Assembly: GCF_058153355.1 (NCBI RefSeq)
Contig: NZ_CM177019.1
Direction: 5' to 3' (one strand)
Length of the DNA: 64,000 nt
The notes under the pieces were generated by a model that saw only the letters and a list, made by a program, of their open reading frames with translations, searched no databases and was not told where the DNA came from. The position numbers and the translations under genes are program-made. The number at the start of each line of letters is the position of its first letter. Position 1 is the stretch's first letter. Below, piece after piece: positions 15,320-58,518 of this stretch.

Positions 15320-15348
15320 AGGCCACACTTTTCAGGTGGCCTTTTTTA
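15320..15348 (+). terminator. intrinsic terminator downstream of eptC
   Basis: aggccacacttttcaggtggcctttttt hairpin plus T-run. Confidence 0.7.
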
Positions 15349-15394
15349 ATAATGCCAGTTACTGTTTTCCCGACTACCTACCTAAGGGAATAAC

Positions 15395-16574: not shown

Positions 16575-16575
16575 T

Positions 16576-19717: not shown

Positions 19718-19767
19718 GAGGAACTCCTGTGGGAAAGCGAACCCGCCCTTACGGGCGGGATAAGAAC

Positions 19768-20088: not shown

Positions 20089-20102
20089 GGCTCGTTCCTC
20101 AA

Positions 20103-21182
20103 TTAATTAATTTCAAAATCCAAATCCAGGTCGTCTTCTTTTTCATCAGTCGAAGACCCATTTTTACGCGCCAGACTTTTCAGCACGTTCACGCAGACTG
20201 CCGTCACCACTGCTCCGACAGCCACTGCGGCGATATAACCCAGCTTGCCTTCAACCACCGGCAGCACAATCAGACCACCCCAGCCTGCATAGCACTGCGC
20301 ACCGACCAGCGCCGCAGTTACTGCACCACAAACTGAACCGACCATGATGGAAGGAATAACACGCAGCGGATCGGCAGCGGCAAAAGGAATCGCCCCTTCA
20401 GTAACCCCAACGCACCCCATCACCAACGCCGCTTTGCCGGTTTCGCGCTCTTCTGCGGAGAAATTTTTACGACCAATCAGCGTCGCCAGCCCCATGCCCA
20501 ACGGTGGAACACAAATCCCAACAGCGGCAATAGCCACCACGGTATAAACACCCTGAGCAACGCAAATCAGCATGAAGGCATAGGCCACTTTGTTAACCGG
20601 ACCGCCCATATCGAACGCCAGCATCAGCCCCATGATCACCGCCAGCATAACAATGCTGCCCTGCTGCATCCCCTGTAGCCACTGAGTCAGGCTGTTGGTC
20701 AACGCCCCCACCGGCTCGCCCAGTCCCCACATCATGACACCAGCGGTAATCAGTGTGCCGACGATCGGAATGATGAAGATTGGCATCACCGAGCGCAGAA
20801 CTTTATGCACCGGAATTTTCTTCAGATAATGCACCACGATGCCGCCGATAATCCCTGCGATCAGCGCACCAAAGAAGCCCGCGCCAAAGCTGTTACCAAC
20901 CCAGGCACCGATGGCGCACGGAGCCAGCGCAGAACGTTCTGCAATGGAATAACCGATGTACGCTGCGAGGAAAGGCACCATCAGCGTCAACCCCGCAACG
21001 CCGATATCAAACAGTTTTTTCAGATTCGGATCGGCTACGGCATCCGGCACTGCGCCTTTGCCATACAACATGACGGAAACCGCCAGCAAAATACCGCCCG
21101 ATACCACGAAGGGAATCATATGTGAAACGCCCGTCATTAAATGCTGACGGGTATTTTTCAGGATCTGCACCAACTCATTCAT
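20103..21182 (-). CDS. frwC: PTS fructose-like EIIC permease
   Basis: ORF 20103..21203; polytopic membrane protein; start trimmed to MNELVQILKNTRQHLMTGVSHMIPF for 359 aa. Confidence 0.9.
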   Translation of the reverse strand: MNELVQILKNTRQHLMTGVSHMIPFVVSGGILLAVSVMLYGKGAVPDAVADPNLKKLFDIGVAGLTLMVPFLAAYIGYSIAERSALAPCAIGAWVGNSFGAGFFGALIAGIIGGIVVHYLKKIPVHKVLRSVMPIFIIPIVGTLITAGVMMWGLGEPVGALTNSLTQWLQGMQQGSIVMLAVIMGLMLAFDMGGPVNKVAYAFMLICVAQGVYTVVAIAAVGICVPPLGMGLATLIGRKNFSAEERETGKAALVMGCVGVTEGAIPFAAADPLRVIPSIMVGSVCGAVTAALVGAQCYAGWGGLIVLPVVEGKLGYIAAVAVGAVVTAVCVNVLKSLARKNGSSTDEKEDDLDLDFEIN

Positions 21183-21490
21183 AAGCTGCTCCCGGGCTTG
21201 CAAAAGCCCATGTCCATATTTTTGATGGAGGAAACAATAGGCAATCGCAGGCGGAGCAAACAGTGGATAAAAAGGCCATTTACTGGACTTTTGTAATATC
21301 AGTACAAAAATGCGATCCGCCTCATAACTTGCGATAACCCGGAAGCATGCCGCAGAACGGCGTCTTGTGAGACGCGTCGCAAATTGACGGTTACATTACA
21401 TTTGTCCAGCTTTTGGCAGATTTGTCACATGGCAGGCCGTTGCCGTGCGCTCTTATCCTGTAAACAGAGAACCGTACCGGGAGAGAGGCA

Positions 21491-23992: not shown

Positions 23993-24003
23993 AAGGAAAC
24001 ATC

Positions 24004-24666
24004 ATGGAACTGTATCTGGACACCGCTAACGTCGCAGAAGTCGAACGTCTGGCACGCATATTCCCGATTGCCGGGGTAACAACTAACCCGAGCATTATCG
24101 CGGCCAGCAAGGAGTCCATCTGGGAAGTGCTGCCGCGTTTGCAAAAAGCGATTGGTGATGAGGGTATTTTGTTTGCTCAGACCATGAGTCGTGACGCGCA
24201 GGGGATGGTGGAAGAAGCGAAGCGCCTGCGCGACGCCATTCCGGGCATCGTGGTGAAAATCCCGGTGACTTCCGAAGGTCTGGCCGCCATTAAGATGCTG
24301 AAAAAAGAGGGTATTACTACACTTGGCACCGCTGTATATAGCGCCGCACAAGGGTTATTAGCCGCGCTGGCAGGGGCAAAATATGTTGCTCCGTATGTTA
24401 ACCGCGTCGACGCCCAGGGCGGTGACGGCATTCGTACGGTTCAGGAGCTGCAAGCGCTGTTGGAAATGCACGCGCCAGAAAGCATGGTGCTGGCTGCCAG
24501 CTTTAAAACACCGCGTCAGGCGCTGGATTGTTTGCTGGCAGGATGTGAGTCCATCACCCTACCCTTAGATGTAGCGCAACAAATGCTCAACACTCCTGCG
24601 GTAGAGTCGGCTATAGAGAAGTTTGAGCACGACTGGAATGCCGCATTTGGCACTACTCATCTCTAA
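24004..24666 (+). CDS. fsaB: fructose-6-phosphate aldolase 2 (transaldolase family)
   Basis: 220-aa [38 protein letters not shown]. Confidence 0.93.
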
Positions 24667-24676
24667 AGGAGCAATT

Positions 24677-25780
24677 ATGGACCGCATTATTCAATCACCG
24701 GGTAAATACATCCAGGGCGCAGATGTCATTAATCGTCTGGGCGAGTACCTGAAGCCGCTGGCAGAACGCTGGTTAGTGGTGGGTGACAAATTTGTTTTAG
24801 GTTTTGCTCAATCCACTGTCGAGAAAAGCTTTAAAGATGCTGGACTGGTAGTAGAAATTGCGCCGTTTGGCGGTGAATGTTCGCAAAATGAGATCGACCG
24901 TCTGCGTGGCATCGCGGAGACTGCGCAGTGTGGCGCAATTCTCGGTATCGGTGGCGGAAAAACCCTCGATACTGCCAAAGCGCTGGCACATTTCATGGGT
25001 GTTCCGGTAGCGATCGCACCGACTATTGCCTCTACCGACGCACCGTGCAGCGCGCTGTCTGTTATCTACACCGATGATGGTGAGTTTGACCGCTATTTGC
25101 TGTTGCCAAATAACCCGAATATGGTCATTGTCGACACCAAAATCGTCGCGGGCGCACCTGCACGTCTGTTAGCGGCGGGTATCGGCGATGCGCTGGCGAC
25201 CTGGTTTGAAGCGCGTGCTTGCTCTCGTAGCGGTGCGACCACAATGGCGGGCGGTAAGTGTACTCAGGCAGCGCTGGCGCTGGCTGAACTGTGCTACAAC
25301 ACGCTGCTGGAAGAAGGCGAAAAAGCGATGCTTGCCGCCGAACAGCATGTAGTAACTCCAGCACTGGAACGCGTGATTGAAGCGAACACCTATTTGAGCG
25401 GCGTTGGCTTTGAAAGCGGTGGGCTGGCGGCGGCGCACGCGGTGCATAACGGCCTGACTGCAATCCCTGATGCCCATCACTATTATCATGGTGAAAAAGT
25501 GGCATTCGGTACGCTGACGCAGCTGGTTCTGGAAAATGCGCCGGTGGAAGAAATCGAAACCGTAGCTGCACTTAGCCATGCGGTAGGTTTGCCAATAACC
25601 CTCGCTCAACTGGATATTAAAGAAGATGTCCCGGCGAAAATGCGGATTGTGGCAGAAGCGGCATGTGCAGAAGGTGAAACCATCCACAACATGCCTGGCG
25701 GCGCGACGCCAGATCAGGTTTACGCCGCACTGCTGGTAGCCGACCAGTACGGTCAGCGTTTCCTGCAAGAGTGGGAATAA
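24677..25780 (+). CDS. gldA: glycerol dehydrogenase
   Basis: ORF 24623..25780; [41 protein letters not shown] onward (367 aa); iron-type alcohol dehydrogenase family. Confidence 0.95.
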
Positions 25781-25788
25781 TCTATGCC

Positions 25789-25813
25789 AAACTCCCGGCT
25801 TGTCCGGGAGTTT
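25789..25813 (+). terminator. probable terminator hairpin after gldA
   Basis: aaactcccggcttgtccgggagttt inverted repeat immediately after the stop; weak T-run. Confidence 0.5.
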
Positions 25814-25824
25814 GAACGCAAAAT

Positions 25825-25925
25825 TGCCTGATGCGCTACGCTTATCAGGCCTACGAAATATCTGCAATGCATTGAATTTACGTGTTTTTTATGTCTGACA
25901 AGGCGTTCAAGCCGCATCCGGCACT
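25825..25925. repeat. REP/BIME repeat pair
   Basis: gcctgatgcgctacgcttatcaggcctac and gacaaggcgttcaagccgcatccggca: two REP-type palindromes in opposite orientation. Confidence 0.75.
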
Positions 25926-26051
25926 CTGTGCCATTAATCTGATACTCCCACGTTGTTCGGGAGTTTTTATCCGCTTCTGGACATTTTCTCCACAGAACAA
26001 TCGTTAGCCCGGAAGGTCGAATCTGTGAATATTTTTTCACGGACGAAACAG

Positions 26052-26669
26052 ATGAAAGCTTCACTGGCGTTGTTCAGTCTTCTGACGGTATTTACCAGTT
26101 ACTCCTTAAAATCTCCCGCTGTTCTACCAACCGTGGTACAAATCCAGGCCAACACCAATCTTGCCATCGCAGACGGTGCCAGACAGCAAATTGGCAGCAC
26201 GCTATTTTACGATCCGGCGTATGTGCAGCTTACTTATCCTGGCGGTGATGTCCCACAAGAACGCGGTGTATGTTCCGATGTGGTGATCCGCGCCCTGCGC
26301 AGCCAGAAGGTCGATTTGCAAAAACTGGTTCACGAAGATATGGCGAAGAATTTTGCCGATTATCCGCAAAAGTGGAAGTTAAAGCGCCCGGACAGCAACA
26401 TCGATCACCGTCGGGTGCCTAATCTGGAAACCTGGTTTACCCGCCACGATAAAACACGCCCCACCAGCAAAAACGCCAGTGACTACCAAGCGGGCGATAT
26501 TGTCTCCTGGCGATTAGATAATGGGCTGGCGCATATCGGAGTGGTGTCAGATGGCTTTGCCCGCGACGGTACGCCGCTGGTGATACATAACATTGGCGCA
26601 GGCGCGCAGGAAGAAGACGTGCTGTTTAGCTGGCGGATGGTGGGGCATTATCGGTATTTTGCTAAATAA
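26052..26669 (+). CDS. yijF: DUF1287-family secreted protein
   Basis: ORF 25953..26669; from MKASLALFSLLTVFTSYSL (signal peptide) 205 aa; matches E. coli YijF from memory. Confidence 0.85.
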   Translation: MKASLALFSLLTVFTSYSLKSPAVLPTVVQIQANTNLAIADGARQQIGSTLFYDPAYVQLTYPGGDVPQERGVCSDVVIRALRSQKVDLQKLVHEDMAKNFADYPQKWKLKRPDSNIDHRRVPNLETWFTRHDKTRPTSKNASDYQAGDIVSWRLDNGLAHIGVVSDGFARDGTPLVIHNIGAGAQEEDVLFSWRMVGHYRYFAK

Positions 26670-26693
26670 GCGCTCGCCCCACCTGTAAAAAAT

Positions 26694-27602
26694 TCAGATC
26701 CTTTTTACGCTGACGGCTTCTTTTTTCTTACGGCTCACCAGCGCCAGTGCCAGCACAATCAGCACAATACCGCTGCCTTCAACCGCGCCGGGATTTTCAC
26801 CGAGCAGCCACCAGGAAAAGAGTACGCCGCAAACGGGAACCGCCAGCGTACTTAAGCTGGCGATACTGGCGGGCAAGTTTTTCAGCACAAACAACCATAA
26901 GCTCCAGGCCAGCGCCCAGAATACGGTGGGCTGCCAGTCAATTTCACGTTGCGGCACCAGTAAAGCGACCGCACTCATCACCAGCGCCGCATACAACATC
27001 TGCCAAGATGTTAACGACAATAAATCTACGCGCGGATGACGGGCGTAAAGGCGTTTAGCGACAATGGCACTCGCCCCCCAACTGACACCAGAGAGGATCG
27101 CCAGCATGGCGCTTTTCATCGAAGAGAAATCGAGTTGCCACGGCTGCAACACCAAAAATAAGCCGAAAGCGGCAATCAGAATCGCCAAATATTGCCCGCG
27201 TCGCAGGCGTTCACCGAGAAACAACGCGGCGAAAATCACCACCCAGAATGGCATGGTATAGCTCAGGATTGCCACCTTCCCTGCTCCGCCGCTCACCAGC
27301 GCCCACTGCGCCAGGCCAACCATCCCGCAGGTTTGTAACAGGGCAATGGCTAAGGTGTATTTAAAGGGCGTCGGGCGCATGCCGCGACCGCGTAATAAAA
27401 GGACGATGAATAAAACGAGAGCGCCGAAAATGCAGCGTAAAGCGGTAAAGTCGAAGGCACCGATGTAGCTGGTGACTTGCTTCATGAAAATCCAGCTATA
27501 ACTCCAGATAAGTGTGAGCACAACCAGGCCACTGATTGCCAGTGGGTTGCTCTTTCCTGCGGCAGACATGAGAGATCCAGTGTGTAGTTTTCCTGTGGAC
27601 AC
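26694..27602 (-). CDS. yijE: EamA/DMT-family transporter
   Basis: 302-aa ORF with about 10 hydrophobic helices; position and sequence consistent with E. coli YijE. Confidence 0.85.
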
Positions 27603-27662
27603 TATACGCTGGTAAAGAAACTTCAGCGACTGCCAGACAGACAGTCGCTGAAGAAGGTCAGA

Positions 27663-29897
<2,235 letters not shown>

Positions 29898-30171
29898 TTA
29901 TAATTGAATTAATCCACGGATGCGATAGTTGAGATCTTACATATTGTTGGTTAAAGAGATGTAGATCAAATTGATCGTAATTAAGCTTTTTTGATTATGT
30001 CCGAATTCGGACAAATGCTTTATAAAAAAGGGTTTTAGCTTCCTATTCTTCAAGGAAGGAGGGCGAAAACAAAGCTGACAACCTTATTTTTCCGCCCTCA
30101 TTTCGAGGCAGCATTTTGTGCTCTGTTTAAAATTTGTGATCACAGTGTGATTTTCACAAAAGGCACACTAT

Positions 30172-31065
<894 letters not shown>

Positions 31066-31118
31066 TTACCTCATCAATCGCTTGTAGTTATATGTTGTGT
31101 TGTGCACATCTATCCGTT

Positions 31119-31146
31119 TAGACGTCCAGATGTAAAGATGAAGGAA
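31119..31146. promoter_or_regulatory. tandem MetJ boxes in the metF promoter
   Basis: tagacgtccagatgtaaagatgaa: consecutive 8-bp repeats resembling the AGACGTCT met-box consensus, about 60-85 bp upstream of the metF start. Confidence 0.7.
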
Positions 31147-31414
31147 AAGCTGAAGGGCGTCAACCGAAAAATGACCAATGATGGTGAGGAAAAATCAGGG
31201 AAGATGAAAAAAATTCAGGATAAAGGCCAAAGTTCCTCGTACCTGAACATGTGGAATATACCTCATTTAAGATGATATTTATTTGTTTAATTATTTTTTC
31301 TATTAACCGGTGCAACGAGTGTTAAAGCGTGTAATTTTAGGATTATATCAATAGTCACGGTTATACAAACAGTGATAATTTATGAAATAATTTTATTTAC
31401 CAGAGGAATAGCGC

Positions 31415-32389
31415 ATGTATCTTAATACTCAAGTTCAATATAATAAGTTAAATAAAGATGAAAAAAAGATCCTGTTGTTACAAAAGCTAGCCCATTTAAC
31501 TGATTTTACTTTTGACAGAATAGAGACATTTTCAGCATTTGGACAATCTACTGAAACAGGTGTTTTTAAATATAAAGATGGCAATGAATTTGTTGTTGTC
31601 CCCGGGGATACAGTAATATTAGGGTGGGATGCCAGTCTCAATAATATGGATGGTCCGACAAAACAAGAATTTGAAGAGATGTTGGAACCAGAAGGTTTAG
31701 ATTTGAATAATTATCTCACCGACTCTTGCACACCTGTCAGGAAGGTTACAATTTCCCCGATGCTGGTTGAAAGAAACGTTCACGCCGAACCAAGTTGGAA
31801 GGAAGTATCTCTTACGGACCCCCGCATCACAGAGAACAGCATGCTGCAAAAATTTCTGTCTGATTATATGGAAAAAATTAATCCTGGAGTTCACGAATTA
31901 AACGCAAGATTGAAATTACAATATATAGATGGGGATTTATTTGCACAAATATATGAATCAATTAGCTATGATGAGTTACTTCAAAATATCCAAAGCAATA
32001 GTTTTGATCTTCCGAGCGAAGATGAATGGGAATATTTATGTGGCGGTGGTTCCAGGACACTCTGGCGCTGGGGGAATAATTTCGACTATCAAATGAAAAT
32101 CCCATTTATTACTTCAGAAGAACCAACAACCTGGGATATAGAATGGCCTAATCAGTTTGGGTTGCAGATTGCATTTGATCCCTATCTTCAGGAAATTATT
32201 AATGATAAAGATATTCTTCTGAAAGGTGGCGATGGTGGGTGCAATCTCTGCGGAGGTGCTAATGTTGTATTAGGATTCTTGCCTGTGGCAACTTATTACA
32301 AAGGATATAATAAACATACGGACGAATTAGAATATATGGATGACATTGGAGACAATTATACTTCTTATCGCAGAATAATTCGTTTATGA
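31415..32389 (+). CDS. hypothetical protein, FGE-sulfatase (SUMF1/EgtB/PvdO-like) domain suspected
   Basis: 324-aa ORF, very AT-rich by eye; motifs FVVVPGDTVILGWDAS, SEDEWEYLCGGGSRTLWRWGNNF and NQFGLQI resemble the MVxIPGGxFxMG, AEWEYAxRGG...PWG and NxxGLxDM motifs of formylglycine-generating-enzyme-like domains; no signal peptide. Confidence 0.5.
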   Translation: MYLNTQVQYNKLNKDEKKILLLQKLAHLTDFTFDRIETFSAFGQSTETGVFKYKDGNEFVVVPGDTVILGWDASLNNMDGPTKQEFEEMLEPEGLDLNNYLTDSCTPVRKVTISPMLVERNVHAEPSWKEVSLTDPRITENSMLQKFLSDYMEKINPGVHELNARLKLQYIDGDLFAQIYESISYDELLQNIQSNSFDLPSEDEWEYLCGGGSRTLWRWGNNFDYQMKIPFITSEEPTTWDIEWPNQFGLQIAFDPYLQEIINDKDILLKGGDGGCNLCGGANVVLGFLPVATYYKGYNKHTDELEYMDDIGDNYTSYRRIIRL

Positions 32390-32440
32390 GTAAAAATTAT
32401 ATTTCAGGACAAGAAGTTATGCTCGGGTCAAGCTAATGAA

Positions 32441-33952
32441 TTGCTTAACGCAAGGAATAAAAACGTATTGATGAACACTGGGAATTTCGAGTCGATACAA
32501 ATCATGATCGACGCGCAAGAGTGGCGTAGCCTGCCGCTGCATCTGCGTCTGTATCACGCTTTTCGCCAATTGGTGATTTCCGGCGCATTGTCTGATGGCG
32601 CAAAACTGCCTTCCGCTCGCGCACTGGCCCAGCAACTTGGTCTTTCCAGAGATACCATCGAAAATGCCTATTCCCAGCTCCACCGCGACGGTTTTATGGC
32701 TCGCAGGCAGGGGGCCGGGAGTTTCGCCAGCCGCCAGGGGATACCGCATATTCAGGGCCAGCATGCGCAACCACCCTCGCCCGGACAAGTACCGGCTTTA
32801 AGCGCTCGCTGGCAGCCAATTGCCGATCGCGCAGTCTCTTTCGATGCCCGCCAGATGCAGACCTTTACGCTTGGCCTGCCGGAAACGCGAAACTTCCCGC
32901 TAAACATTTGGCAGAACTTTTCCCGCCAGATCCAACGTGAGCAGGCACATACGCTGATGTTAAATAGCGATCCGCAGGGCGAGCCACAGCTGCGCCAGCA
33001 AATTGCGCATTACCTTAATTTTGAACGCGGCGCGAAGGTAGATGCCGGGCAGATTGTGATTGTCAGCGGCGCACGGCAGGCGTTCTGGCTGTGCGGGCAA
33101 CTGCTGGCAGAGGCCGGACAGTCGGTGGCGATGGAAAATCCGGGCTATCCCGGCGCGCGTCAGGCGTTTTCTGCCGCACAGCTTAATCTTCTTCCCGTTG
33201 AAGTGGATGACGCCGGGATCCGGGTGGATAAACTGCCGCCCGCGCCGCTGGTTTACGTCACGCCCTCGCACCAGTTTCCTTCCGGTCATTTGCTCACGCT
33301 GGCGCGGCGTCATGCCCTGATTGCCTGGGCGCAGGCGCACAATGCGTGGATTATCGAAGACGACTACGACAGCGAATTTCACTACACCAGCGCGCCCGTC
33401 GCCTGTCTGCAAGGGTTAGACTGCGAGCAACGCACCCTGTATGTCGGCACTTTCAGCAAAACGCTCTATCCCGGCCTGCGCATCGGTTATCTGGTGGTGC
33501 CGACGTCGCTGGCTGCGCACTTTGCCGCCGCGCGTAATTTGCTTGATGGCGCAACGCCTGCGTTATCCCAACTAACGCTGGCGCGATTTATCGAGTCCGG
33601 TCATTTTGCCGCCCATATTCGCAACATGCGTAGTATGTATGCGGTGCGACAGGGGTGCCTGGCAGAGGCTATTCATCAGCACTTAAGTGAATGGGTCACG
33701 CCAGTGGTGACATCCGGTGGATTGCAAATGCCCTGCTGGCTGCATGGAGGTATTGATGAGCAACAGACGCTGAATGCCGCGCGCCGCGCCGGGTTAAACA
33801 TCGCCGGAATGCGCCAGTTCTGGCTGACGCACCCCGCGCACGCGGGCTGGCTGCTGGGATTCGCCGCCTTTACCCCCTACGAGATTGAACAGGGCGTCAA
33901 GCGTCTGCGGGCTGCATTATGCACTGAAAACGTGCGCCCAGCCGGGTCATAA
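32441..33952 (+). CDS. MocR/GabR-type regulator (GntR HTH fused to a PLP aminotransferase-like domain)
   Basis: 503-aa ORF; N-terminal GntR-like HTH (LPSARALAQQLGLSRDTIENAYSQLHRDGFMARRQGAGSF) followed by a roughly 350-aa aminotransferase class I/II-like region; true start may be an internal Met; GC-rich by eye. Confidence 0.8.
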   Translation: MLNARNKNVLMNTGNFESIQIMIDAQEWRSLPLHLRLYHAFRQLVISGALSDGAKLPSARALAQQLGLSRDTIENAYSQLHRDGFMARRQGAGSFASRQGIPHIQGQHAQPPSPGQVPALSARWQPIADRAVSFDARQMQTFTLGLPETRNFPLNIWQNFSRQIQREQAHTLMLNSDPQGEPQLRQQIAHYLNFERGAKVDAGQIVIVSGARQAFWLCGQLLAEAGQSVAMENPGYPGARQAFSAAQLNLLPVEVDDAGIRVDKLPPAPLVYVTPSHQFPSGHLLTLARRHALIAWAQAHNAWIIEDDYDSEFHYTSAPVACLQGLDCEQRTLYVGTFSKTLYPGLRIGYLVVPTSLAAHFAAARNLLDGATPALSQLTLARFIESGHFAAHIRNMRSMYAVRQGCLAEAIHQHLSEWVTPVVTSGGLQMPCWLHGGIDEQQTLNAARRAGLNIAGMRQFWLTHPAHAGWLLGFAAFTPYEIEQGVKRLRAALCTENVRPAGS

Positions 33953-33956
33953 TCTC

Positions 33957-35003
33957 CTACGGGATGGTGTTGCAGGCAGCGGCAACCTGTTCCAGCGTCT
34001 GGCCTGCGCCAATAAATTCCACCTTATCGCCCGCTGTCGGCGTGACGGAGCTGGCATCGACCATAAAGCTGTCCATACAAACCCGCCCCAATACCGGTAA
34101 CCGCACGCCGCGCCAGCATACGCCCGCCGGAGGACGCATATTTCGCGGAACGCCATCCGCGTAACCCGCGGATATCGTAGCGATACGCAGCGGACGCGTG
34201 GCGGTAATCGTGCTGCCGTAGCCAACTGGCGTTCCCGCCGGGACATCCTGCACGCGCAGAATAGTTAGCGTCAGCGTAAAAGCCGGTTTTAGCGGCCTGG
34301 AAAACCACGGCTGGGCGACGCCAAACAGCGCAATCCCCGGACGGCAGAGATCTTCCCGCCAACCTGGTTGCAAAAACATTCCGCAGGAGTTCGCCAGCGA
34401 AAATCGGCTGCTGGGGAAAACCGTTTTTGCCTGCTGGAATAGCGCGTGTTGCGCCATATTTAACGCATGATCCGGCCTGTCGGCGTTCGCCAGATGGCTG
34501 ATGATATAGTCCGGCGCAGGCCAGTTACGCTCACGAAAAATCGCCGCCAGACGCATCAGTTGTTGCGGCATCATGCCCAGCCGCGACATACCAGAATCGA
34601 GCTGAATCATCACCGCGCTCCGTTGCTGGCGCGTTTCCAGTAACGTAAGCCACGCCATCACCTGGTCTACGGAATTGAGCAATGGCGTGATCTGCTGCGC
34701 GTAACAATACGCCATCGCCTCCGGCATAACCCCATTAAGCACTACCACCATCGCATCAGTGGGCAGGATTTTACGCAACGCCACGCCTTCAGAAAGCTGT
34801 GCGACAAAAAAGATCCGGCAGTTCGCCGCATACAGGGCGGGCGCAATCGCCTCCGCCCCCAGACCATAGGCATTGGCTTTCAACACCGCGCCACATTGCG
34901 CAGGGGCAGCATGGCGGGCCAGCATACGATAATTGTCGACGATGGCGGCGCGATTAACGCACATAACACCGCACGCCGCCTGGATTTCAGTAGAAGTCAT
35001 CAT
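33957..35003 (-). CDS. alanine racemase-family PLP enzyme (amino-acid racemase, specificity unknown)
   Basis: 348-aa ORF; VLKANAYGLG (PLP-lysine motif, cf. VVKANAYGHG in Alr) and SAGYADGVPR (cf. MGYGDGYPR catalytic Tyr region). Confidence 0.8.
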   Translation of the reverse strand: MMTSTEIQAACGVMCVNRAAIVDNYRMLARHAAPAQCGAVLKANAYGLGAEAIAPALYAANCRIFFVAQLSEGVALRKILPTDAMVVVLNGVMPEAMAYCYAQQITPLLNSVDQVMAWLTLLETRQQRSAVMIQLDSGMSRLGMMPQQLMRLAAIFRERNWPAPDYIISHLANADRPDHALNMAQHALFQQAKTVFPSSRFSLANSCGMFLQPGWREDLCRPGIALFGVAQPWFSRPLKPAFTLTLTILRVQDVPAGTPVGYGSTITATRPLRIATISAGYADGVPRNMRPPAGVCWRGVRLPVLGRVCMDSFMVDASSVTPTAGDKVEFIGAGQTLEQVAAACNTIP

Positions 35004-47615: not shown

Positions 47616-47796
47616 TTGCGTATAGATTGAGCAAATCCCAAATAGCCGTTAAAATTATATGCATTATCACGCCGACAGGTGCATTACACGATGTCACGGT
47701 AACGCCTGTACGGTAAACTATGCGGGTTTACGGTCAGTACCCACATAAATTGTGTGGTCTGGTCTCAATTTATTGACGAAGAGGATTAAGTATCTC

Positions 47797-48114
47797 ATGG
47801 CTGAATGGAGCGGCGAATATATCAGCCCATACGCTGAGCACGGCAAGAAGAGTGAACAAGTCAAAAAGATTACGGTTTCCATTCCTCTTAAGGTGTTAAA
47901 AATCCTCACCGATGAACGCACGCGTCGTCAGGTGAACAACCTGCGTCACGCTACCAACAGCGAGCTGCTGTGCGAAGCGTTTCTGCATGCCTTTACCGGG
48001 CAACCTCTGCCGGATGATGCCGACCTGCGTAAAGAGCGCAGCGACGAAATCCCGGAAGCGGCAAAAGAGATCATGCGTGAGATGGGGATTAACCCGGAAA
48101 CGTGGGAATACTAA
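47797..48114 (+). CDS. metJ: methionine repressor MetJ
   Basis: ORF 47752..48114; [66 protein letters not shown] (105 aa). Confidence 0.96.
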
Positions 48115-48173
48115 AGCGGAAAAGAGCGGCGCGGAGTTAACCAGCCGCTTTTTTCATACATGGACGTTTAACT

Positions 48174-48782
48174 ATGAAATACAGGCTACTGATCCTCAGC
48201 ATGCTGGTTTCTGTGCCTGCCCTTGCCTGGCAGCCGGAAACTGGCGACATCATCTTTCAGATCTCTCGCTCATCGCAAAGTAAAGCAATCCAACTGGCGA
48301 CCCATTCCGATTACAGCCACACCGGTATGCTGGTGATGCGTAACAAAAAGCCCTACGTTTTTGAAGCGGTCGGCCCGGTGAAATACACCCCGCTCAAGCA
48401 GTGGATCGCCCATGGTGAAAAGGGCAAATACGTTGTTCGCCGCGTTGAAGGCGGACTGAGTGTTGAACAACAGCAAAAACTGGCGCAAACGGCAAAACGT
48501 TATCTCGGCAAACCGTACGATTTCAGCTTCTCGTGGAGTGATGATCGCCAGTACTGTTCGGAAGTAGTGTGGAAGGTTTACCAGAACGCACTGGGAATGC
48601 GCGTGGGTGAACAGCAAAAACTGAAAGAGTTCGATCTCAGCAACCCGCTGGTTCAGGCGAAGCTCAAAGAACGTTACGGGAAAAATATTCCGCTTGAAGA
48701 AACGGTGGTCTCGCCACAAGCCGTTTTCGATGCGCCACAACTCACCACAGTCGCCAAAGAATGGCCGCTGTTTTCGTGGTAA
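48174..48782 (+). CDS. yiiX: YiiX-family lipoprotein / permuted papain-like hydrolase
   Basis: 202-aa ORF with signal peptide MKYRLLILSMLVSVPALA; position between metJ and rpmE as in E. coli. Confidence 0.85.
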   Translation: MKYRLLILSMLVSVPALAWQPETGDIIFQISRSSQSKAIQLATHSDYSHTGMLVMRNKKPYVFEAVGPVKYTPLKQWIAHGEKGKYVVRRVEGGLSVEQQQKLAQTAKRYLGKPYDFSFSWSDDRQYCSEVVWKVYQNALGMRVGEQQKLKEFDLSNPLVQAKLKERYGKNIPLEETVVSPQAVFDAPQLTTVAKEWPLFSW

Positions 48783-48802
48783 TACGACCAAAATTCAGGC
48801 AC

Positions 48803-48830
48803 AAAAAAAGCGCCGTGCGGCGCTTTTTTC
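48803..48830. terminator. bidirectional intrinsic terminator between convergent yiiX and rpmE
   Basis: aaaaaaagcgccgtgcggcgcttttttc: GC hairpin flanked by A-run and T-run. Confidence 0.8.
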
Positions 48831-48842
48831 GGAAATCCGGTC

Positions 48843-49094
<252 letters not shown>

Positions 49095-49098
49095 CTAA

Positions 49099-51456
<2,358 letters not shown>

Positions 51457-51611
51457 TGCGCAAACGATGCGAGGCGGATCGAAAAATTCAATATTCATCA
51501 CACTTTTCATGAAAATTCTGTAACCGTTTTCACGCGCTATCTGCTAAAAATGTTGCCGATGTGAAGTAAACATGGAAGTAGTACGCCTGCCGTGCCGGGC
51601 GAGGAGTGAGT

Positions 51612-52637
51612 GTGAAAGCGAAGAAGCAGGAAACTGCCGCGACCATGAAAGACGTTGCCCTGAAGGCAAAAGTCTCTACAGCGACCGTCTCCCGAGCATT
51701 AATGAATCCCGATAAAGTCTCCCAGGCCACCCGTAATCGGGTTGAAAAAGCGGCCCGGGAAGTAGGTTATTTGCCGCAGCCTATGGGGCGCAACGTCAAG
51801 CGTAATGAATCCCGTACCATTCTGGTGATTGTCCCGGATATCTGCGATCCCTTCTTTAGCGAAATTATTCGCGGTATCGAAGTTACGGCGGCAAATCACG
51901 GATATCTGGTGCTGATTGGCGACTGTGCGCATCAAAATCAGCAGGAAAAAACCTTTATCGATTTGATCATCACCAAGCAAATTGATGGCATGTTGCTGCT
52001 GGGTTCAAGGCTGCCGTTTGATGCCAGCATTGAGGAACAGCGTAATCTGCCGCCGATGGTGATGGCGAACGAATTTGCACCGGAACTGGAGCTACCAACA
52101 GTTCATATCGACAATCTGACCGCCGCATTTGATGCAGTAAATTATTTATATGAGCAAGGGCATAAACGGATTGGCTGTATAGCCGGTCCCGAAGAGATGC
52201 CGCTGTGTCACTACCGCCTGCAAGGCTACGTTCAGGCGCTGCGTCGCTGCGGCATTATGGTTGATCCGCAATACATCGCCCGGGGCGACTTCTCCTTTGA
52301 AGCCGGAAGCAAAGCGATGCAACAGCTGCTTGCTCTTCCGCAACCGCCTACTGCTGTCTTCTGCCATAGTGATGTGATGGCGCTCGGCGCACTTTCTCAG
52401 GCAAAACGCCAGGGGCTGAAAGTCCCGGATGATCTGTCCATAATCGGTTTTGATAACATCGACCTGACGCAATTTTGTGATCCGCCGCTGACAACCATCG
52501 CGCAGCCGCGTTACGAAATCGGTCGGGAAGCTATGCTGTTATTGCTTGATCAAATGCAGGGGCAACACGTTGGCAGTGGCTCTCGTTTAATGGACTGCGA
52601 ACTTATCATCCGGGGATCAACACGCGCGTTACCTTAA
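51612..52637 (+). CDS. cytR: LacI-family transcriptional repressor CytR
   Basis: ORF from 51606; MKAKKQETAATMKDVALKAKVSTATVSRALMNPDKVS... (341 aa if started at the GTG two codons in). Confidence 0.93.
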   Translation: MKAKKQETAATMKDVALKAKVSTATVSRALMNPDKVSQATRNRVEKAAREVGYLPQPMGRNVKRNESRTILVIVPDICDPFFSEIIRGIEVTAANHGYLVLIGDCAHQNQQEKTFIDLIITKQIDGMLLLGSRLPFDASIEEQRNLPPMVMANEFAPELELPTVHIDNLTAAFDAVNYLYEQGHKRIGCIAGPEEMPLCHYRLQGYVQALRRCGIMVDPQYIARGDFSFEAGSKAMQQLLALPQPPTAVFCHSDVMALGALSQAKRQGLKVPDDLSIIGFDNIDLTQFCDPPLTTIAQPRYEIGREAMLLLLDQMQGQHVGSGSRLMDCELIIRGSTRALP

Positions 52638-52728
52638 AGTAAACCTTTAAGACTGCCGTGACTGGTCAAAGGCCCGCCGCTTAAGTAACATGGCGGGCTG
52701 ACGAACGAATAAATACAGCGAAACGATA

Positions 52729-53676
52729 GTGGCACAACGAGATTATGTACGCCGCAGCCAACCGGCACCTTCGCGGCGAAAAAAAAGCACCTCACGGAAA
52801 AAGCAACGAAATCTGCCTGCGGTTTCTCCCGCAATGGTCGCTATTGCTGCCGCCGTTCTTGTGACCTTTATCGGTGGTCTGTACTTCATTACGCATCACA
52901 AGAAAGAAGAGTCCGAGACGCTGCAAAGCCAGAAAGTGACCGGAAACGGATTACCACCGAAACCAGAAGAACGCTGGCGCTACATTAAAGAGCTGGAAAG
53001 TCGCCAGCCGGGTGTGCGTGCACCAACAGAACCTTCTGCCGGTGGTGAAGTGAAAACGCCGGAACAACTGACACCAGAACAACGTCAGCTTCTTGAACAA
53101 ATGCAGGCTGATATGCGCCAGCAACCAACGCAACTGGTTGAAGTCCCATGGAATGAACAGACGCCGGAACAGCGTCAGCAAACGCTTCAACGTCAGGCAC
53201 AACAGCGTCAGATTCAGGCGGCTCAACAGCAGCAGCGTCAGGCTGAGCAGGCATATCAACAACCGCGTACCGCGCAAGCGCAGCAACCACCGCGCCAGAC
53301 GCAGCAGACTCGCCAGGCGGCTCAGCAGCCGTACCAGGATCTCCTGCAAACGCCAGCACACACTGCCGCGGCGCAGCCGAAGTCACAGCAAGTCGCGCCT
53401 GTTAGCCGGGCCGCTGACGCGCCAAAACAGACGGCAGAGAAAAAAGACGAGCGGCGCTGGATGGTACAGTGCGGTTCGTTCCGAGGCGCGGAACAGGCAG
53501 AGACGGTACGTGCTCAGCTGGCGTTCGAAGGCTTTGACTCGAAAATTACCACCAACAATGGCTGGAATCGTGTGGTGATTGGCCCGATTAAAGGGAAAGA
53601 AAATGCCGACGGCACCCTGAATCGCCTGAAGATGGCGGGTCATACAAACTGTATTCGACTCGCCGCCGGGGGTTGA
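52729..53676 (+). CDS. ftsN: cell division protein FtsN
   Basis: 315-aa ORF MAQRDYVRRSQPAPSRRKKSTSRKKQRNL, TM helix, Gln-rich linker, C-terminal SPOR domain (WMVQCGSFRGAEQAETVRAQLAFEGF). Confidence 0.93.
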   Translation: MAQRDYVRRSQPAPSRRKKSTSRKKQRNLPAVSPAMVAIAAAVLVTFIGGLYFITHHKKEESETLQSQKVTGNGLPPKPEERWRYIKELESRQPGVRAPTEPSAGGEVKTPEQLTPEQRQLLEQMQADMRQQPTQLVEVPWNEQTPEQRQQTLQRQAQQRQIQAAQQQQRQAEQAYQQPRTAQAQQPPRQTQQTRQAAQQPYQDLLQTPAHTAAAQPKSQQVAPVSRAADAPKQTAEKKDERRWMVQCGSFRGAEQAETVRAQLAFEGFDSKITTNNGWNRVVIGPIKGKENADGTLNRLKMAGHTNCIRLAAGG

Positions 53677-53700
53677 AACCCTCAAAATCCCCCCCATCTA
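53673..53700 (+). promoter_or_regulatory. sigma-32 (heat-shock) promoter of hslVU
   Basis: ttgaaa (-35) and ccccatcta (-10) with about 13-bp spacing, matching the sigma-32 consensus, about 70 bp upstream of hslV. Confidence 0.7.
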
Positions 53701-53768
53701 TAATTGCATTATGCCCCGTACTTTTGTACGGGGTTTGTACTCTGTATTCGTAACCAAGGGGTCAGCTC

Positions 53769-54299
53769 GTGACAACTATAGTAAGCGTACGCCGTAACGG
53801 CCATGTGGTCATCGCTGGTGATGGTCAGGCCACGTTGGGCAATACCGTAATGAAAGGTAACGTGAAAAAGGTCCGCCGTCTGTACAACGACAAAGTCATC
53901 GCGGGCTTTGCGGGCGGTACTGCGGATGCTTTTACGCTGTTCGAACTGTTTGAACGTAAACTGGAAATGCATCAGGGCCATCTGGTCAAAGCCGCCGTTG
54001 AACTGGCAAAAGACTGGCGTACCGATCGCATGTTACGCAAACTTGAAGCACTGCTGGCAGTCGCGGATGAAACCGCTTCACTGATCATCACCGGTAACGG
54101 TGACGTGGTGCAGCCAGAAAACGATCTTATTGCTATCGGCTCCGGCGGCCCTTACGCCCAGGCTGCGGCGCGCGCGCTGTTAGAAAACACTGAACTAAGC
54201 GCCCGTGAAATTGCTGAAAAGGCGTTGGATATTGCAGGCGACATTTGCATCTATACCAACCATTTCCACACCATCGAAGAATTAAGCTACAAAGCGTAA
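53769..54299 (+). CDS. hslV: ATP-dependent protease subunit HslV
   Basis: 176-aa ORF (GTG start) [31 protein letters not shown]-terminal Thr nucleophile. Confidence 0.96.
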
Positions 54300-54308
54300 G
54301 GATCTCCC

Positions 54309-55640
54309 ATGTCTGAAATGACCCCACGCGAAATCGTCAGCGAACTGGATAAACACATCATCGGCCAGGATAACGCCAAGCGTTCCGTGGCGATTGCACT
54401 GCGTAACCGCTGGCGTCGCATGCAGCTTAACGAAGAGCTGCGCCATGAAGTGACCCCGAAAAATATCCTGATGATCGGCCCGACCGGTGTCGGTAAAACT
54501 GAAATCGCTCGTCGTCTGGCTAAGCTGGCGAATGCGCCGTTCATTAAAGTTGAAGCGACCAAATTCACCGAAGTGGGCTATGTAGGTAAGGAAGTGGATT
54601 CTATTATCCGCGATCTGACCGATGCCGCCGTGAAAATGGTACGCGTCCAGGCTATTGAGAAAAACCGTTATCGCGCTGAAGAACTGGCAGAAGAACGTAT
54701 TCTCGACGTGCTGATCCCACCGGCTAAAAACAACTGGGGACAGACCGAACAACAGCAGGAACCGTCCGCTGCTCGTCAGGCATTCCGCAAAAAACTGCGT
54801 GAAGGCCAGCTCGATGACAAAGAAATCGAGATCGATCTTGCCGCAGCACCGATGGGCGTTGAAATTATGGCGCCTCCGGGAATGGAAGAGATGACCAGCC
54901 AGCTGCAGTCCATGTTCCAGAACCTGGGTGGTCAGAAACAAAAAGCGCGTAAGCTGAAAATCAAAGACGCCATGAAGCTGCTGATTGAAGAAGAAGCGGC
55001 GAAACTGGTGAATCCGGAAGAGCTGAAGCAAGACGCTATCGACGCCGTTGAACAGCACGGGATCGTGTTTATCGACGAAATCGACAAAATCTGTAAGCGC
55101 GGCGAGTCTTCCGGTCCGGATGTTTCTCGTGAAGGTGTTCAGCGTGACCTGCTGCCGCTGGTAGAAGGTTGCACCGTTTCCACCAAACACGGGATGGTCA
55201 AAACTGACCACATTCTGTTTATCGCTTCTGGCGCGTTCCAGATTGCGAAACCGTCTGACCTGATCCCGGAACTGCAAGGTCGTCTGCCAATCCGCGTTGA
55301 ACTGCAGGCACTGACCACCAGCGACTTCGAGCGTATTCTGACCGAGCCGAATGCCTCTATCACCGTGCAGTACAAAGCACTGATGGCGACTGAAGGCGTA
55401 AATATCGAGTTCACCGACTCCGGTATTAAGCGGATCGCGGAAGCAGCATGGCAGGTGAACGAATCTACCGAAAACATCGGTGCTCGTCGTTTACATACTG
55501 TTCTGGAGCGTTTAATGGAAGAGATTTCCTACGACGCCAGCGATTTAAGCGGTCAAACCATCACTATTGACGCAGATTATGTGAGCAAACATCTGGATGC
55601 GTTGGTGGCAGATGAAGATCTGAGCCGTTTTATCCTATAA
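54309..55640 (+). CDS. hslU: ATP-dependent protease ATPase subunit HslU
   Basis: 443-aa [43 protein letters not shown], Walker A GPTGVGKT. Confidence 0.97.
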
Positions 55641-55671
55641 TCGCGTTCAATCATTTTCATCATTGTTTGAT

Positions 55672-55694
55672 GGGGCTGAAAGGCCCCATTTTTA
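55672..55694 (+). terminator. intrinsic terminator after hslU
   Basis: ggggctgaaaggcccc followed by attttta. Confidence 0.7.
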
Positions 55695-55706
55695 TTGGCG
55701 CGTATT

Positions 55707-56633
55707 ATGACTGAACAACAAATTAGCCGAACTCAGGCGTGGCTGGAAAGTTTACGACCTAAAACCCTCCCCCTCGCCTTTGCTGCAATTATCGTCGGGA
55801 CGGCGCTGGCATGGTGGCAAGGTCACTTCGATCCGCTGGTCGCCCTGCTGGCACTGATTACCGCCGGACTGCTTCAAATTCTCTCTAACCTCGCTAATGA
55901 TTACGGCGATGCAGTAAAAGGCAGCGATAAACCTGACCGCATTGGCCCGCTACGTGGCATGCAAAAAGGGGTCATTACCCAGCAAGAGATGAAACGGGCG
56001 CTCATTATTACCGTCGTCCTCATCTGTCTCTCCGGGCTGGCGTTGGTTGCAGTGGCGTGCCATACGCTGGCCGATTTTGTCGGCTTCCTGATTCTTGGCG
56101 GGTTGTCGATCATTGCCGCTATCACCTACACCGTGGGCAATCGTCCTTATGGTTATATCGGTCTGGGTGATATTTCCGTACTGGTTTTCTTTGGCTGGTT
56201 AAGCGTCATGGGCAGCTGGTATTTACAGGCTCATACGTTGATTCCGGCGTTGATCCTTCCGGCGACCGCATGCGGCCTGCTGGCAACGGCAGTACTGAAC
56301 ATTAATAACCTGCGTGATATCAATAGCGACCGCGAAAACGGCAAAAACACGCTGGTGGTGCGCTTAGGTGCAGTAAACGCGCGTCGTTATCATGCCTGCC
56401 TGCTGATGGGCTCTCTGGTGTGTCTGGCGCTGTTTAATCTCTTTTCGCTGCATAGCCTGTGGGGCTGGCTGTTCCTGCTGGCGGCACCATTACTGGTGAA
56501 GCAAGCCCGTTATGTGATGCGGGAAATGGACCCGGTGGCGATGCGACCGATGCTGGAACGCACTGTCAAGGGAGCGTTACTGACTAACCTGCTGTTTGTT
56601 TTAGGGATATTCCTAAGCCAGTGGGCAGCATAA
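55707..56633 (+). CDS. menA: 1,4-dihydroxy-2-naphthoate octaprenyltransferase
   Basis: ORF 55695..56633; MTEQQISRTQAWLESLRPKTLPLAFAAI onward (308 aa); UbiA-family polytopic membrane protein. Confidence 0.93.
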   Translation: MTEQQISRTQAWLESLRPKTLPLAFAAIIVGTALAWWQGHFDPLVALLALITAGLLQILSNLANDYGDAVKGSDKPDRIGPLRGMQKGVITQQEMKRALIITVVLICLSGLALVAVACHTLADFVGFLILGGLSIIAAITYTVGNRPYGYIGLGDISVLVFFGWLSVMGSWYLQAHTLIPALILPATACGLLATAVLNINNLRDINSDRENGKNTLVVRLGAVNARRYHACLLMGSLVCLALFNLFSLHSLWGWLFLLAAPLLVKQARYVMREMDPVAMRPMLERTVKGALLTNLLFVLGIFLSQWAA

Positions 56634-56725
56634 CTGACAAATATCAATTAACAATTGATGATTTTGCCAACAGCCCACATAGCGCGATATACTGAAAATT
56701 CTCGCAGCAACTGAATGTTAAGCCT

Positions 56726-57211
56726 ATGAAATACGATACTTCCGAGCTTTGTGACATCTATCAAGAAGATGTTAACGTCGTGGAACCGCTGTTCTCCAAT
56801 TTTGGCGGACGGGCGTCGTTTGGCGGACAAATAATCACGGTAAAATGTTTCGAGGACAACGGGTTGCTGTACGATCTGCTCGAACAGAATGGCCGTGGTC
56901 GTGTTCTCGTCGTTGATGGCGGTGGTTCTGTTCGTCGCGCACTGGTCGATGCTGAGCTGGCGCGTCTGGCAGTACAAAATGAATGGGAAGGCCTGGTCAT
57001 TTACGGCGCGGTGCGTCAGGTAGATGACCTGGAAGAGCTGGATATCGGCATCCAGGCGATGGCAGCAATTCCAGTCGGTGCCGCTGGCGAAGGCATTGGC
57101 GAAAGCGATGTCCGCGTTAATTTTGGCGGCGTCACCTTCTTCTCCGGTGACCATCTTTATGCCGACAATACCGGAATTATTCTTTCAGAAGATCCGCTGG
57201 ATATTGAATAA
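56726..57211 (+). CDS. rraA: RNase E inhibitor RraA
   Basis: 161-aa [49 protein letters not shown]. Confidence 0.95.
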
Positions 57212-57228
57212 GTACCTGCCATGCGTTA

Positions 57229-57254
57229 AAAGGGGAATTAAATTCCCCTTTTTT
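57229..57254 (+). terminator. intrinsic terminator after rraA
   Basis: aaaaggggaattaaattcccctttttta. Confidence 0.75.
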
Positions 57255-57469
57255 ATATGCAAAATATTCATAAAGACTATCGTTTGTTTTTATTTAATTC
57301 ATTTTAAATATCAATAGTTCACATCTGACAATATAAATTAATTATCGATAAATCATTTCATAAAAATATGCAGCATTAAAAATTAATGCTATATGGTAAA
57401 TTAACTATTCTGGGAATAGGGATATGAATCATCGTTAGTAGCGAACGTATTATATAATAAGGGACTGAT

Positions 57470-58186
57470 ATGAGATACGTTATCTTATTAATACTATGGA
57501 TAATAACTACTTTTCTTAGTCATCTTCAGCACAGCAACCTACTGTCTGGAGATCCTGGCATGGTTGGCGAGTATATCGGTTCAGTATTTCTGGGGCCGTT
57601 GTTACTTCCCGTGCTTGTGTCAGGTATTCTGTGCGCATTTATTAAAAAAAAACGTAACTTCGCCAGTTTTACTCGCGGGTGCTGTTGGGTATTGGGAATC
57701 CTGCTTTTATCCAAAGTCGGCAATACGTTTCGTATGTTTACCCCGTGGCAATATACCTTTGAGAATGCTGCGATAACCGTGACTATCCCGAACCGACACT
57801 GGAATACGGTTTCCATCAGTACTAATAAAACCATTGATATAAGAAGTGAGGATAATAGCGTCTTCATTTCTGCTTTCCGCCTGCCCGCAGGACGTAGCGC
57901 CGATGACCCGCTGGAAGCGTTAAAGAAGAAGCAGCGAGACAATCTCAAGGATCAATACAATGAGGAAGCCTTCCAGTTTCATGATTGTAATGCCAAACAT
58001 TTCACCTGTAAGTATCAGGATGTGTTGATAAATTTTGATGGTCAGCAGAAAAGAACCATCAGTGTTTATCTTGAAGACACCCCCAGGGCTGTGGGGATCA
58101 TTGCATTAATGGCGCCAGATACGGCAGATAAATATCGCCAACAGGCGATGGAGATTATGCTTTCCGCTAAAAATGCAGTGAAGTAA
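57470..58186 (+). CDS. hypothetical small membrane protein (2-3 N-terminal TM helices plus soluble C-terminal domain)
   Basis: 238-aa ORF, AT-rich by eye, preceded by a 215-bp AT-rich region; hydrophobic segments VILLILWIITTFL, VFLGPLLLPVLVSGILCAFI, CCWVLGILLL; no recognisable family; lies between the rraA and zapB terminators. Confidence 0.6.
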   Translation: MRYVILLILWIITTFLSHLQHSNLLSGDPGMVGEYIGSVFLGPLLLPVLVSGILCAFIKKKRNFASFTRGCCWVLGILLLSKVGNTFRMFTPWQYTFENAAITVTIPNRHWNTVSISTNKTIDIRSEDNSVFISAFRLPAGRSADDPLEALKKKQRDNLKDQYNEEAFQFHDCNAKHFTCKYQDVLINFDGQQKRTISVYLEDTPRAVGIIALMAPDTADKYRQQAMEIMLSAKNAVK

Positions 58187-58192
58187 AAAATA

Positions 58193-58210
58193 AGGCGCCT
58201 TGCGGCGCCT
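58193..58210 (-). terminator. intrinsic terminator of zapB (minus strand)
   Basis: aggcgccttgcggcgcct hairpin; on the minus strand it is followed by ttatttttt. Confidence 0.7.
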
Positions 58211-58224
58211 CTGCGTGGAAGAGA

Positions 58225-58518
<294 letters not shown>

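Follow-up and report, generated by a model that had tools for sequence, protein, structure and literature searches.

The ftsN gene in the DNA analysed here (64,000 nucleotides of contig NZ_CM177019.1 from NCBI RefSeq assembly GCF_058153355.1, referred to below as the window) raises the question of how a conserved essential gene comes to encode a protein whose Gln-rich linker differs strongly from that of E. coli K-12, although the functional domains on either side of it are almost unchanged. The first-pass annotation of this stretch, made without database searches, had noticed that neither the length nor the sequence of the linker seems to agree with K-12, and ascribed this, tentatively, to neutral slippage-type variation.

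FtsN and its domains have been studied thoroughly. The protein is a bitopic activator of the divisome: its short basic cytoplasmic tail binds FtsA, a single transmembrane (TM) helix (aa 34-53) leads to the periplasmic essential region EFtsN (Leu75-Gln93), which switches on septal peptidoglycan synthesis, and the SPOR domain has the denuded glycan strands at the septum as its ligand; the Gln-rich region between the EFtsN part and SPOR is an unstructured linker (PMC7939390). At the level of sequence the gene in the window is FtsN on every count examined. It is annotated ftsN in every matching genome, its product matches the NCBIfam equivalog NF008179 (640.8 bits, cut-off 525; aa 1-315 on profile positions 1-319) as well as the equivalog TIGR02223 (346.6 bits, cut-off 107.65), and the SPOR domain is recognised by Pfam PF05036 at aa 242-309 (E = 5.3e-18; 65.6 bits, cut-off 21). 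Only one ftsN is present within the region, and the gene order cytR-ftsN-hslV-hslU is the same in K-12 and in all loci fetched. Proteins identical to that of the window have already been deposited as E. coli FtsN (EGO8351770.1, HFG3508432.1). The coordinates of the gene, its domains and the segments discussed below are collected in Table 1.

Alignment with K-12 FtsN (319 aa; WP_000068828.1; locus L001), which has the same domain order, confirms that the N-terminal part and the SPOR domain are conserved, as had been surmised. Residues 1-156, which include the FtsA-binding tail, the TM helix and EFtsN, are identical in the two proteins, and the SPOR region differs by only two substitutions, V->I and S->G. 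At the codon level, the first 152 codons contain 12 differences from K-12, every one of them synonymous, and the differences in the last 80 codons comprise 16 synonymous and 2 non-synonymous ones. Between aa 157 and approximately aa 235 the linker carries many substitutions and several indels relative to K-12, which together make it 4 aa shorter. In alignment windows of 100 columns, the DNA of the flanks is 96-100 % identical to that of K-12; identity drops to 38 % at positions 53195-53269 and recovers through 66 % (53270-53369) to 84 % (53370-53469). The peptide that the first-pass annotation had singled out, QQTLQRQAQQRQIQAAQQQQRQAEQAYQQP, begins at aa 150 (nt 53176), within the interval given there, and the alignment to K-12 and to other strains that it proposed finds the linkers not identical: the difference in length and sequence is real (38-66 % DNA identity over 53195-53369, net -4 aa) and far exceeds chance or ordinary strain variation.

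The bulk properties of the linker are much less altered than its sequence. From aa 129 to the start of SPOR it measures 111 aa, compared with 115 aa in K-12; its net charge is +6 in both proteins, and with a Gln content of 32 % (27 % in K-12) and an abundance of A, P, R and T its composition has been kept. Judged from this composition alone, the linker would be disordered. Open reading frames of 133-161 aa that run across the linker, antisense and in another frame of the + strand, were considered as genes and rejected: similar open frames exist in every ftsN allele checked, and since their frames and lengths vary among alleles we attribute them to the CAG/CAA/GCN-rich composition. A separate 238-aa ORF between rraA and zapB gave no match in a Pfam scan.

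Table 1. Features of the ftsN locus in the window, with the numbers of informative sites of E. coli type and of E. fergusonii type
Feature	Position	Strand	E. coli-type sites	E. fergusonii-type sites	Remarks
Left flank, upstream of the junction	51467-53094		299	8	
ftsN CDS	52729-53676	+			GTG start, 315 codons plus stop; chimeric allele; from ORF list, NCBIfam and annotation
E. coli-type 5' part of ftsN	52729-53094	+			tail, TM helix aa 34-53, helices H1-H3 with EFtsN
EFtsN essential region	52951-53007	+			aa 75-93; limits from PMC7939390
5' junction zone	53095-53186	+			codons ~123-153, LEQMQADMRQQPTQLVEVPWNEQTPEQRQQTLQ, conserved between species; putative site of crossover
E. fergusonii-type linker block	53187-53409	+	2	74	aa ~154-227, variable core of the Gln-rich linker; from informative sites, 74 of 78 columns E. 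fergusonii-type
Imperfect 24-bp tandem repeat	53196-53243	+			QQRQIQAA/QQQQRQAE; TRF: 2.0 copies, 79 % matches; slippage substrate
SPOR coding region	53443-53673	+			aa 239-315, equivalent to K-12 aa 243-319; Pfam PF05036
Segment downstream of the block	53418-53570		18	0	
3' SPOR patch	53571-53663		1	11	
Segment downstream of the 3' SPOR patch	53664-53996		28	0	
Possible E. fergusonii-like patch	54033-54940	+	0	12	hslV 3' / hslU 5'; weak, few informative sites
Segment downstream of the possible patch	54953-57208		122	14	

Outside the clade I genomes described below, the closest matches to the divergent linker are found in E. fergusonii. A protein-database search returned E. fergusonii FtsN sequences of 315 aa (P0031, P0032) and 314 aa (P0034, P0036) with 97-98 % identity to the window protein; P0034 is B7LUS1_ESCF3 / CAQ91274.1, the FtsN of E. 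fergusonii ATCC 35469 (314 aa). These proteins carry the linker peptide QRQAQQRQIQAAQQQQRQAEQAYQQPRTAQAQQPPRQTQQTRQAAQQPYQ in identical or near-identical form and share the SPOR residues I287 and G295 with the window, whereas their N-terminal half differs from both the window and K-12 (S10G, L29M, KTPE->INPD). The same reversal of affinity is seen in the DNA, where segment 52729-53094 is 98 % identical to K-12 and 88 % to E. fergusonii, whereas segment 53198-53420 is 61 % identical to K-12 and 95-99 % to E. fergusonii. Over the linker block the window is 96-99 % identical to E. fergusonii ftsN, that of the type strain ATCC 35469 included. Five E. fergusonii loci were fetched (L088-L092), and they span 3-10 differences in the 223 positions of the block: 3 for L088 and 9-10 for the type-like loci, compared with 113 differences in about 235 aligned columns for K-12. 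Relative to L088, 46 codons differ among codons 1-152, and only 5 among the 163 codons from 153 to 315. Type-like E. fergusonii is more divergent from the window in the 5' segment of SPOR (83 %, with R->K in SFRGAEQ) and very different in the upstream cytR (77 %). The linker type found in the window is present in the five loci retrieved and in every protein named E. fergusonii.

Two other origins had been considered for this linker. A scan of species representatives with the whole protein yielded 80 FtsN loci, among which E. fergusonii and the E. coli type strain were absent; no closer linker was found in these 80, the best non-Escherichia match being Citrobacter amalonaticus at 73 %. Taken alone, these loci (73 % for C. 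amalonaticus, about 71 % for K-12) had suggested a donor outside the sampled taxa, and the shared motifs QRQAQQRQ, AHTxAxQPK and PKQTAEKK a Citrobacter-like origin; both ideas were overturned by the matches to the E. fergusonii proteins. A protein search with the linker only, a low-complexity query, gave 20 matches, mostly to partial proteins, and was uninformative. The other Escherichia compared were E. albertii, E. whittamii, Escherichia sp. E1V33 and Escherichia sp. MOD1-EC7003, and their linkers are all K-12-like.

The change in affinity along the gene was mapped with informative sites, defined as positions at which one base is fixed in four ordinary E. coli (K-12, ECCHD184 and two B2 strains) and another is fixed in four type-like E. 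fergusonii. The counts in Table 1 differ sharply between the left flank and the linker block (Fisher p = 4e-67). The last E. coli-type site before the block lies at 53094 and the first E. fergusonii-type site at 53187; the positions between them show interleaved or private states. On the 3' side the edge of the main block falls within 53410-53470, near the conserved AEKKDERRW at the start of SPOR. The SPOR coding region is itself a mosaic, E. coli-like in its first part and E. fergusonii-like towards its 3' end, and some clade I strains (MFDS1022581, R32_14_1F) have lost this 3' patch; the protein P0033 is a further sub-mosaic. With a small E. coli panel and few sites to define them, the patches beyond the linker block have weak support and are best regarded as tentative. 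In the hslV/hslU patch the resolution is low, since these genes are 96-100 % conserved between the two species.

Among 5,426 complete genomes labelled E. coli, the whole ftsN of the window is matched at 95 % or more in 18 only, and 5,129 of 5,425 genomes match it at 80-90 %, while the surrounding 10 kb match at 95-99 % in nearly all of those genomes. With the linker block as query the result is the same 18 of 5,426 genomes, all at 99.6 % or more, and the block is absent from the other 5,408. The genomes that were fetched from outside this group of carriers all have K-12-like linkers. The 18 carriers are all among the 19 best matches to positions 15000-35000 of the window, a segment that ends about 18 kb upstream of ftsN; their identity to the window in this segment is 97.8-98.3 %, compared with 95.8 % for ordinary E. 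coli, values that refer to a stretch of 16-20 kb only. Escherichia cryptic clade I is the sister lineage of E. coli sensu stricto. The strains assigned to clade I in PMC10100065, which are hard to distinguish from E. coli sensu stricto, include two of the carriers, EC42405 and 2013C-4282. That paper gives an average nucleotide identity (ANI) of >98.3 % within clade I and >95.9 % between clade I and E. coli sensu stricto, and it describes a 1368-bp marker gene specific to clade I, which may lie outside the window. The identities of the window to the carriers fall partly below the published within-clade threshold of >98.3 %. Since the carriers are the closest relatives of the window and include two published clade I strains, the window itself most likely comes from a strain of cryptic clade I. 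The block allele is carried by every clade I genome sampled (the 18 complete genomes and the window). Seven clade I loci (the window, L002, L006 and L093-L096) have a common 5' junction and are 0-2 nt apart from one another in the block, compared with up to 9 nt among the E. fergusonii alleles. As the other retrieved Escherichia have a K-12-like linker, the linker of clade I is phylogenetically out of place.

Slippage in the FtsN linker is real, and the databases contain many examples of it in this same Gln-rich region. Among proteins with the linker type of the window, P0030 (331 aa) contains three copies of QQRQIQAA, and P0037 (307 aa) is 8 aa short at the repeat; among K-12-type proteins, P0077 (341 aa) has RTTEQSWQQQT three times, and P0079 (285 aa), P0137 (292 aa) and P0040 (349 aa) are further length variants. 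E2348/69 (294 aa, minus 25 aa) and ECCHD184 (308 aa, minus 11 aa) have K-12-like linkers with clean in-frame deletions. Across both allele classes the lengths recorded are thus 285, 292, 294, 307, 308, 331, 341 and 349 aa. These variants, the repetitive nature of the linker with its 24-bp repeat, and the faster evolution of the linker than of the remaining gene across Enterobacteriaceae would be expected if the linker had diverged in place through replication slippage under relaxed constraint. However, slippage variants are clean duplications or deletions of units of 8-30 aa, whereas the allele of the window has dense substitutions throughout the block, about half of whose aligned columns differ from K-12. 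Tandem repeats were also searched for as the cause of the divergence, and only one weak two-copy repeat of 24 bp was found, too little to account for it. Divergence in place leaves unexplained why the block should be 96-99 % identical to E. fergusonii next to a 5' half that is only 88 % identical, why its boundaries are sharp, and why a K-12-type linker is seen in the retrieved sister and outgroup Escherichia. Slippage operates within each allele class and does not account for the difference between the classes, for which we give it practically no credence. On this point the first-pass annotation does not hold: the 96-99 % match to E. fergusonii (with about 113 of about 235 aligned columns differing from K-12) together with the sharp junctions indicates allele replacement by homologous recombination rather than slippage.

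If the close match to E. fergusonii is accepted, it might still reflect common ancestry, with an Escherichia ancestor that had both linker types and of which clade I and E. fergusonii kept the same one. The presence of this type in every genome sampled of both lineages fits such a polymorphism, as does the distance of about 4 % between the native E. fergusonii block and that of clade I, which shows that the sharing is not very recent. Vertical descent predicts, however, that the least constrained part of the gene should have diverged most, and the opposite is observed: the linker is 96 % identical, whereas the constrained flank, which diverges mostly through synonymous changes, is 88 % identical. 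The other linker type would moreover have had to be sorted independently into E. coli sensu stricto, E. albertii, E. whittamii and two further Escherichia, so that we consider retained polymorphism extremely unlikely. The direction of transfer is a separate matter. The linker type could have passed from clade I, or from an unsampled taxon, into E. fergusonii (and, from a third party, into clade I as well). Reverse flow can be demonstrated at this very locus, where E. fergusonii L088 has a segment identical to clade I, and the cytR-ftsN region of E. fergusonii is oddly divergent, its cytR being only about 77 % identical to those of E. coli, Citrobacter and other retrieved Enterobacteriaceae, as would suit an older import of this region into E. 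fergusonii. Such an origin is nevertheless unlikely. The linker type occurs in all E. fergusonii sequences sampled, where it is more diverse (up to 9 differences in 223 positions, compared with 0-2 in clade I) and the native sequence on either side has diverged just as much; the clade I linker, by contrast, is bounded by abrupt junctions; for a third party, the 80 species-representative loci offer nothing closer than the C. amalonaticus linker. Distribution and diversity favour E. fergusonii as the source.

The mosaic structure of the gene, its affinity to E. fergusonii, its distribution among lineages and the conservation of its functional domains are observed directly. We consider it very probable that the ftsN of clade I is a mosaic in which the core of the linker was replaced with an E. 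fergusonii allele by homologous recombination, once, and probably without functional consequence. The tract of E. fergusonii origin would certainly span 53187-53409 and at most 53095-53417, and the smaller patch at the 3' end of SPOR may have been acquired likewise, by replacement. The crossovers would have taken place in conserved sequence on either side, in codons ~123-153 and near AEKKDERRW at the start of SPOR. From parsimony and diversity we infer that the transfer went from E. fergusonii to clade I. A single origin of the clade I allele appears likely: with clade I the sister of E. coli sensu stricto, with a K-12-type linker in the other Escherichia and with a common junction, a single import, most likely into the ancestor of clade I, is the parsimonious account, and the allele is now found in all clade I genomes sampled. 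The 9-10 differences in 223 positions that separate the block from type-like E. fergusonii suggest that this import was not recent. The actual donor could be an unsampled relative of E. fergusonii, whose native linker is about 4 % distant from that of clade I.

The history of the locus did not end with this import. In E. fergusonii L088 (protein P0032), native bases extend up to 53244, and from about 53250 to about 54000 the sequence is 100 % identical to the window. This segment includes the E. coli-like patches. Its identity to clade I shows that at this locus there has also been flow in the reverse direction, from clade I into E. fergusonii.

The part that was exchanged would be an equivalent flexible tether between the EFtsN part and SPOR. 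With tail, TM helix and EFtsN identical to K-12, and SPOR nearly so, the protein should still work as FtsN. Because length, charge and composition were kept, the exchange of the linker was probably neutral, and this part of the first-pass reading is plausible. Neutrality also fits the tolerance of natural variants of 285-349 aa and the finding of the allele in all sequences sampled from E. fergusonii and in all clade I genomes sampled. One could instead suppose that the sequence of the linker matters, through the reach and dynamics of the SPOR tether, through contacts in the periplasm or as the target of an antagonist, and that the swap was selected in clade I. The occurrence of the allele in every clade I genome sampled and the exchange of the same short region in both directions between the species are what selection could produce, but drift in the ancestor of the clade can also give fixation, and the conserved length, charge and composition, together with the tolerated length variants, leave a selected swap very unlikely. 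In its wider form, with the FtsN linker under lineage-specific or diversifying selection and the two-way exchange an adaptive introgression of a division module, the idea is highly improbable; if it were true, the linker would be more than a passive spacer and would, for instance, tune the reach or speed with which the SPOR anchor and EFtsN are separated, or would evade an antagonist acting in the periplasm. We know of no selective agent for an exchange of the FtsN linker.

Mosaic housekeeping genes formed by homologous recombination between species are well known from penA and pbp2x in Neisseria and Streptococcus. The ftsN of clade I resembles them in that part of a conserved essential chromosomal gene, a short stretch in its interior, comes from a related species and the crossovers lie in conserved sequence to either side. 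Those mosaics were selected by antibiotics and have a changed active domain, whereas here a disordered tether was exchanged and its bulk properties were preserved. Recombination between species commonly produces mosaic alleles in Escherichia, and in a literature search we found no published description of this one in ftsN. Its general biological significance is small, since it is an ordinary mosaic allele. The suggestion that the difference could serve as an allelic marker is upheld, and more specifically than anticipated: it marks Escherichia cryptic clade I, for which the 223-bp block is a clean lineage marker that could help to recognise strains. The locus also documents, at this one place in the genome, two-way gene flow between clade I and E. 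fergusonii. For FtsN itself, the allele amounts to a natural experiment in which the core of the linker was swapped for a sequence of about 60 % identity and the essential function was kept, a result in favour of regarding the linker as a tether defined by composition and length.

Across the two segments of the window that were compared (15000-35000 and 48000-58000), ordinary E. coli are only about 95.8 % identical to the window, whereas 18 complete genomes, among them the published cryptic clade I strains EC42405 and 2013C-4282, reach 97.8-99.2 %. The window therefore most likely derives from Escherichia cryptic clade I rather than from E. coli sensu stricto, an assignment measured on these two segments and extended to the whole window by implication.

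The structure of the neighborhood also varies among the genomes compared. Approximately 1.1 kb of additional DNA lies between rraA and zapB, and it contains an ORF of 238 aa whose N-terminal part is hydrophobic and for which a Pfam scan returned no matches. All fetched clade I loci carry a shorter version of this ORF, for which the annotation gives either a hypothetical protein (WP_123057342.1 / WP_176263514.1) or a pseudogene, and the ORF is missing from the K-12, E2348/69, ECCHD184 and E. fergusonii loci compared. The region upstream of rpmE, where the alignment of the window to K-12 is gapped, is likewise variable: K-12 has metJ-yiiX at this position, WL297, EC42405, 2013C-4282 and HBUT-L have RHS-element remnants or RHS core genes, and R32_14_1F and E. 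fergusonii have an additional TIGR02117/DUF2459 gene.

Features in and around the ftsN locus (window coordinates unless a fetched locus is named)
Feature	Sequence	Coordinates	Strand	Remark
Region upstream of rpmE	window	47729-48200		variable structure
priA	window	49410-51463		
E. fergusonii cytR	L088-L092 (five E. fergusonii loci)	4882-5907		counterpart: window 51606-52637
Long stop-free frame over ftsN linker	window	52951-53386	-	antisense
Long stop-free frame over ftsN linker	window	53093-53578	+	second sense frame
Additional rraA-zapB DNA	window	57170-58270		
238-aa ORF	window	57470-58186	+	inside the additional rraA-zapB DNA
ftsN annotated as frameshifted	L007 (E. coli HBUT-L locus)	5001-5940		940 bp

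Stop-free frames of 133-161 aa overlap the ftsN linker. Similarly long ones, in varying frames, occur in every ftsN allele checked, and the CAG/CAA/GCN-rich composition accounts for them. The annotation of two related strains (E. coli HBUT-L / hubt-sl) lists a frameshift in ftsN; since ftsN is essential, an assembly error is more likely than a true pseudogene.

The E. fergusonii cytR is only about 77 % identical to that of E. coli, whereas the E. coli gene is 91 % identical to that of E. albertii and 81 % to that of Citrobacter; the genes of Citrobacter and Salmonella are about as distant from the E. fergusonii cytR as is that of E. coli. Judged by these identities, the E. fergusonii cytR is an outlier within the genus, either fast-evolving or an old import.

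In priA, chiefly toward its 3' end, several stretches are just 89-95 % identical to K-12, and at the informative sites, which are few, they carry E. fergusonii-like bases. The sub-segments matched differ between clade I strains and likewise between E. fergusonii strains, which suggests further mosaic exchange upstream. At ftsN itself, the E. fergusonii genome GCA_020034675.1 has a segment that matches window ~53250-54000 at 100 % identity, and this segment takes in the E. coli-like patches of the SPOR domain and hslV. The match shows that clade I sequence has in turn entered E. fergusonii by recombination at this same locus.
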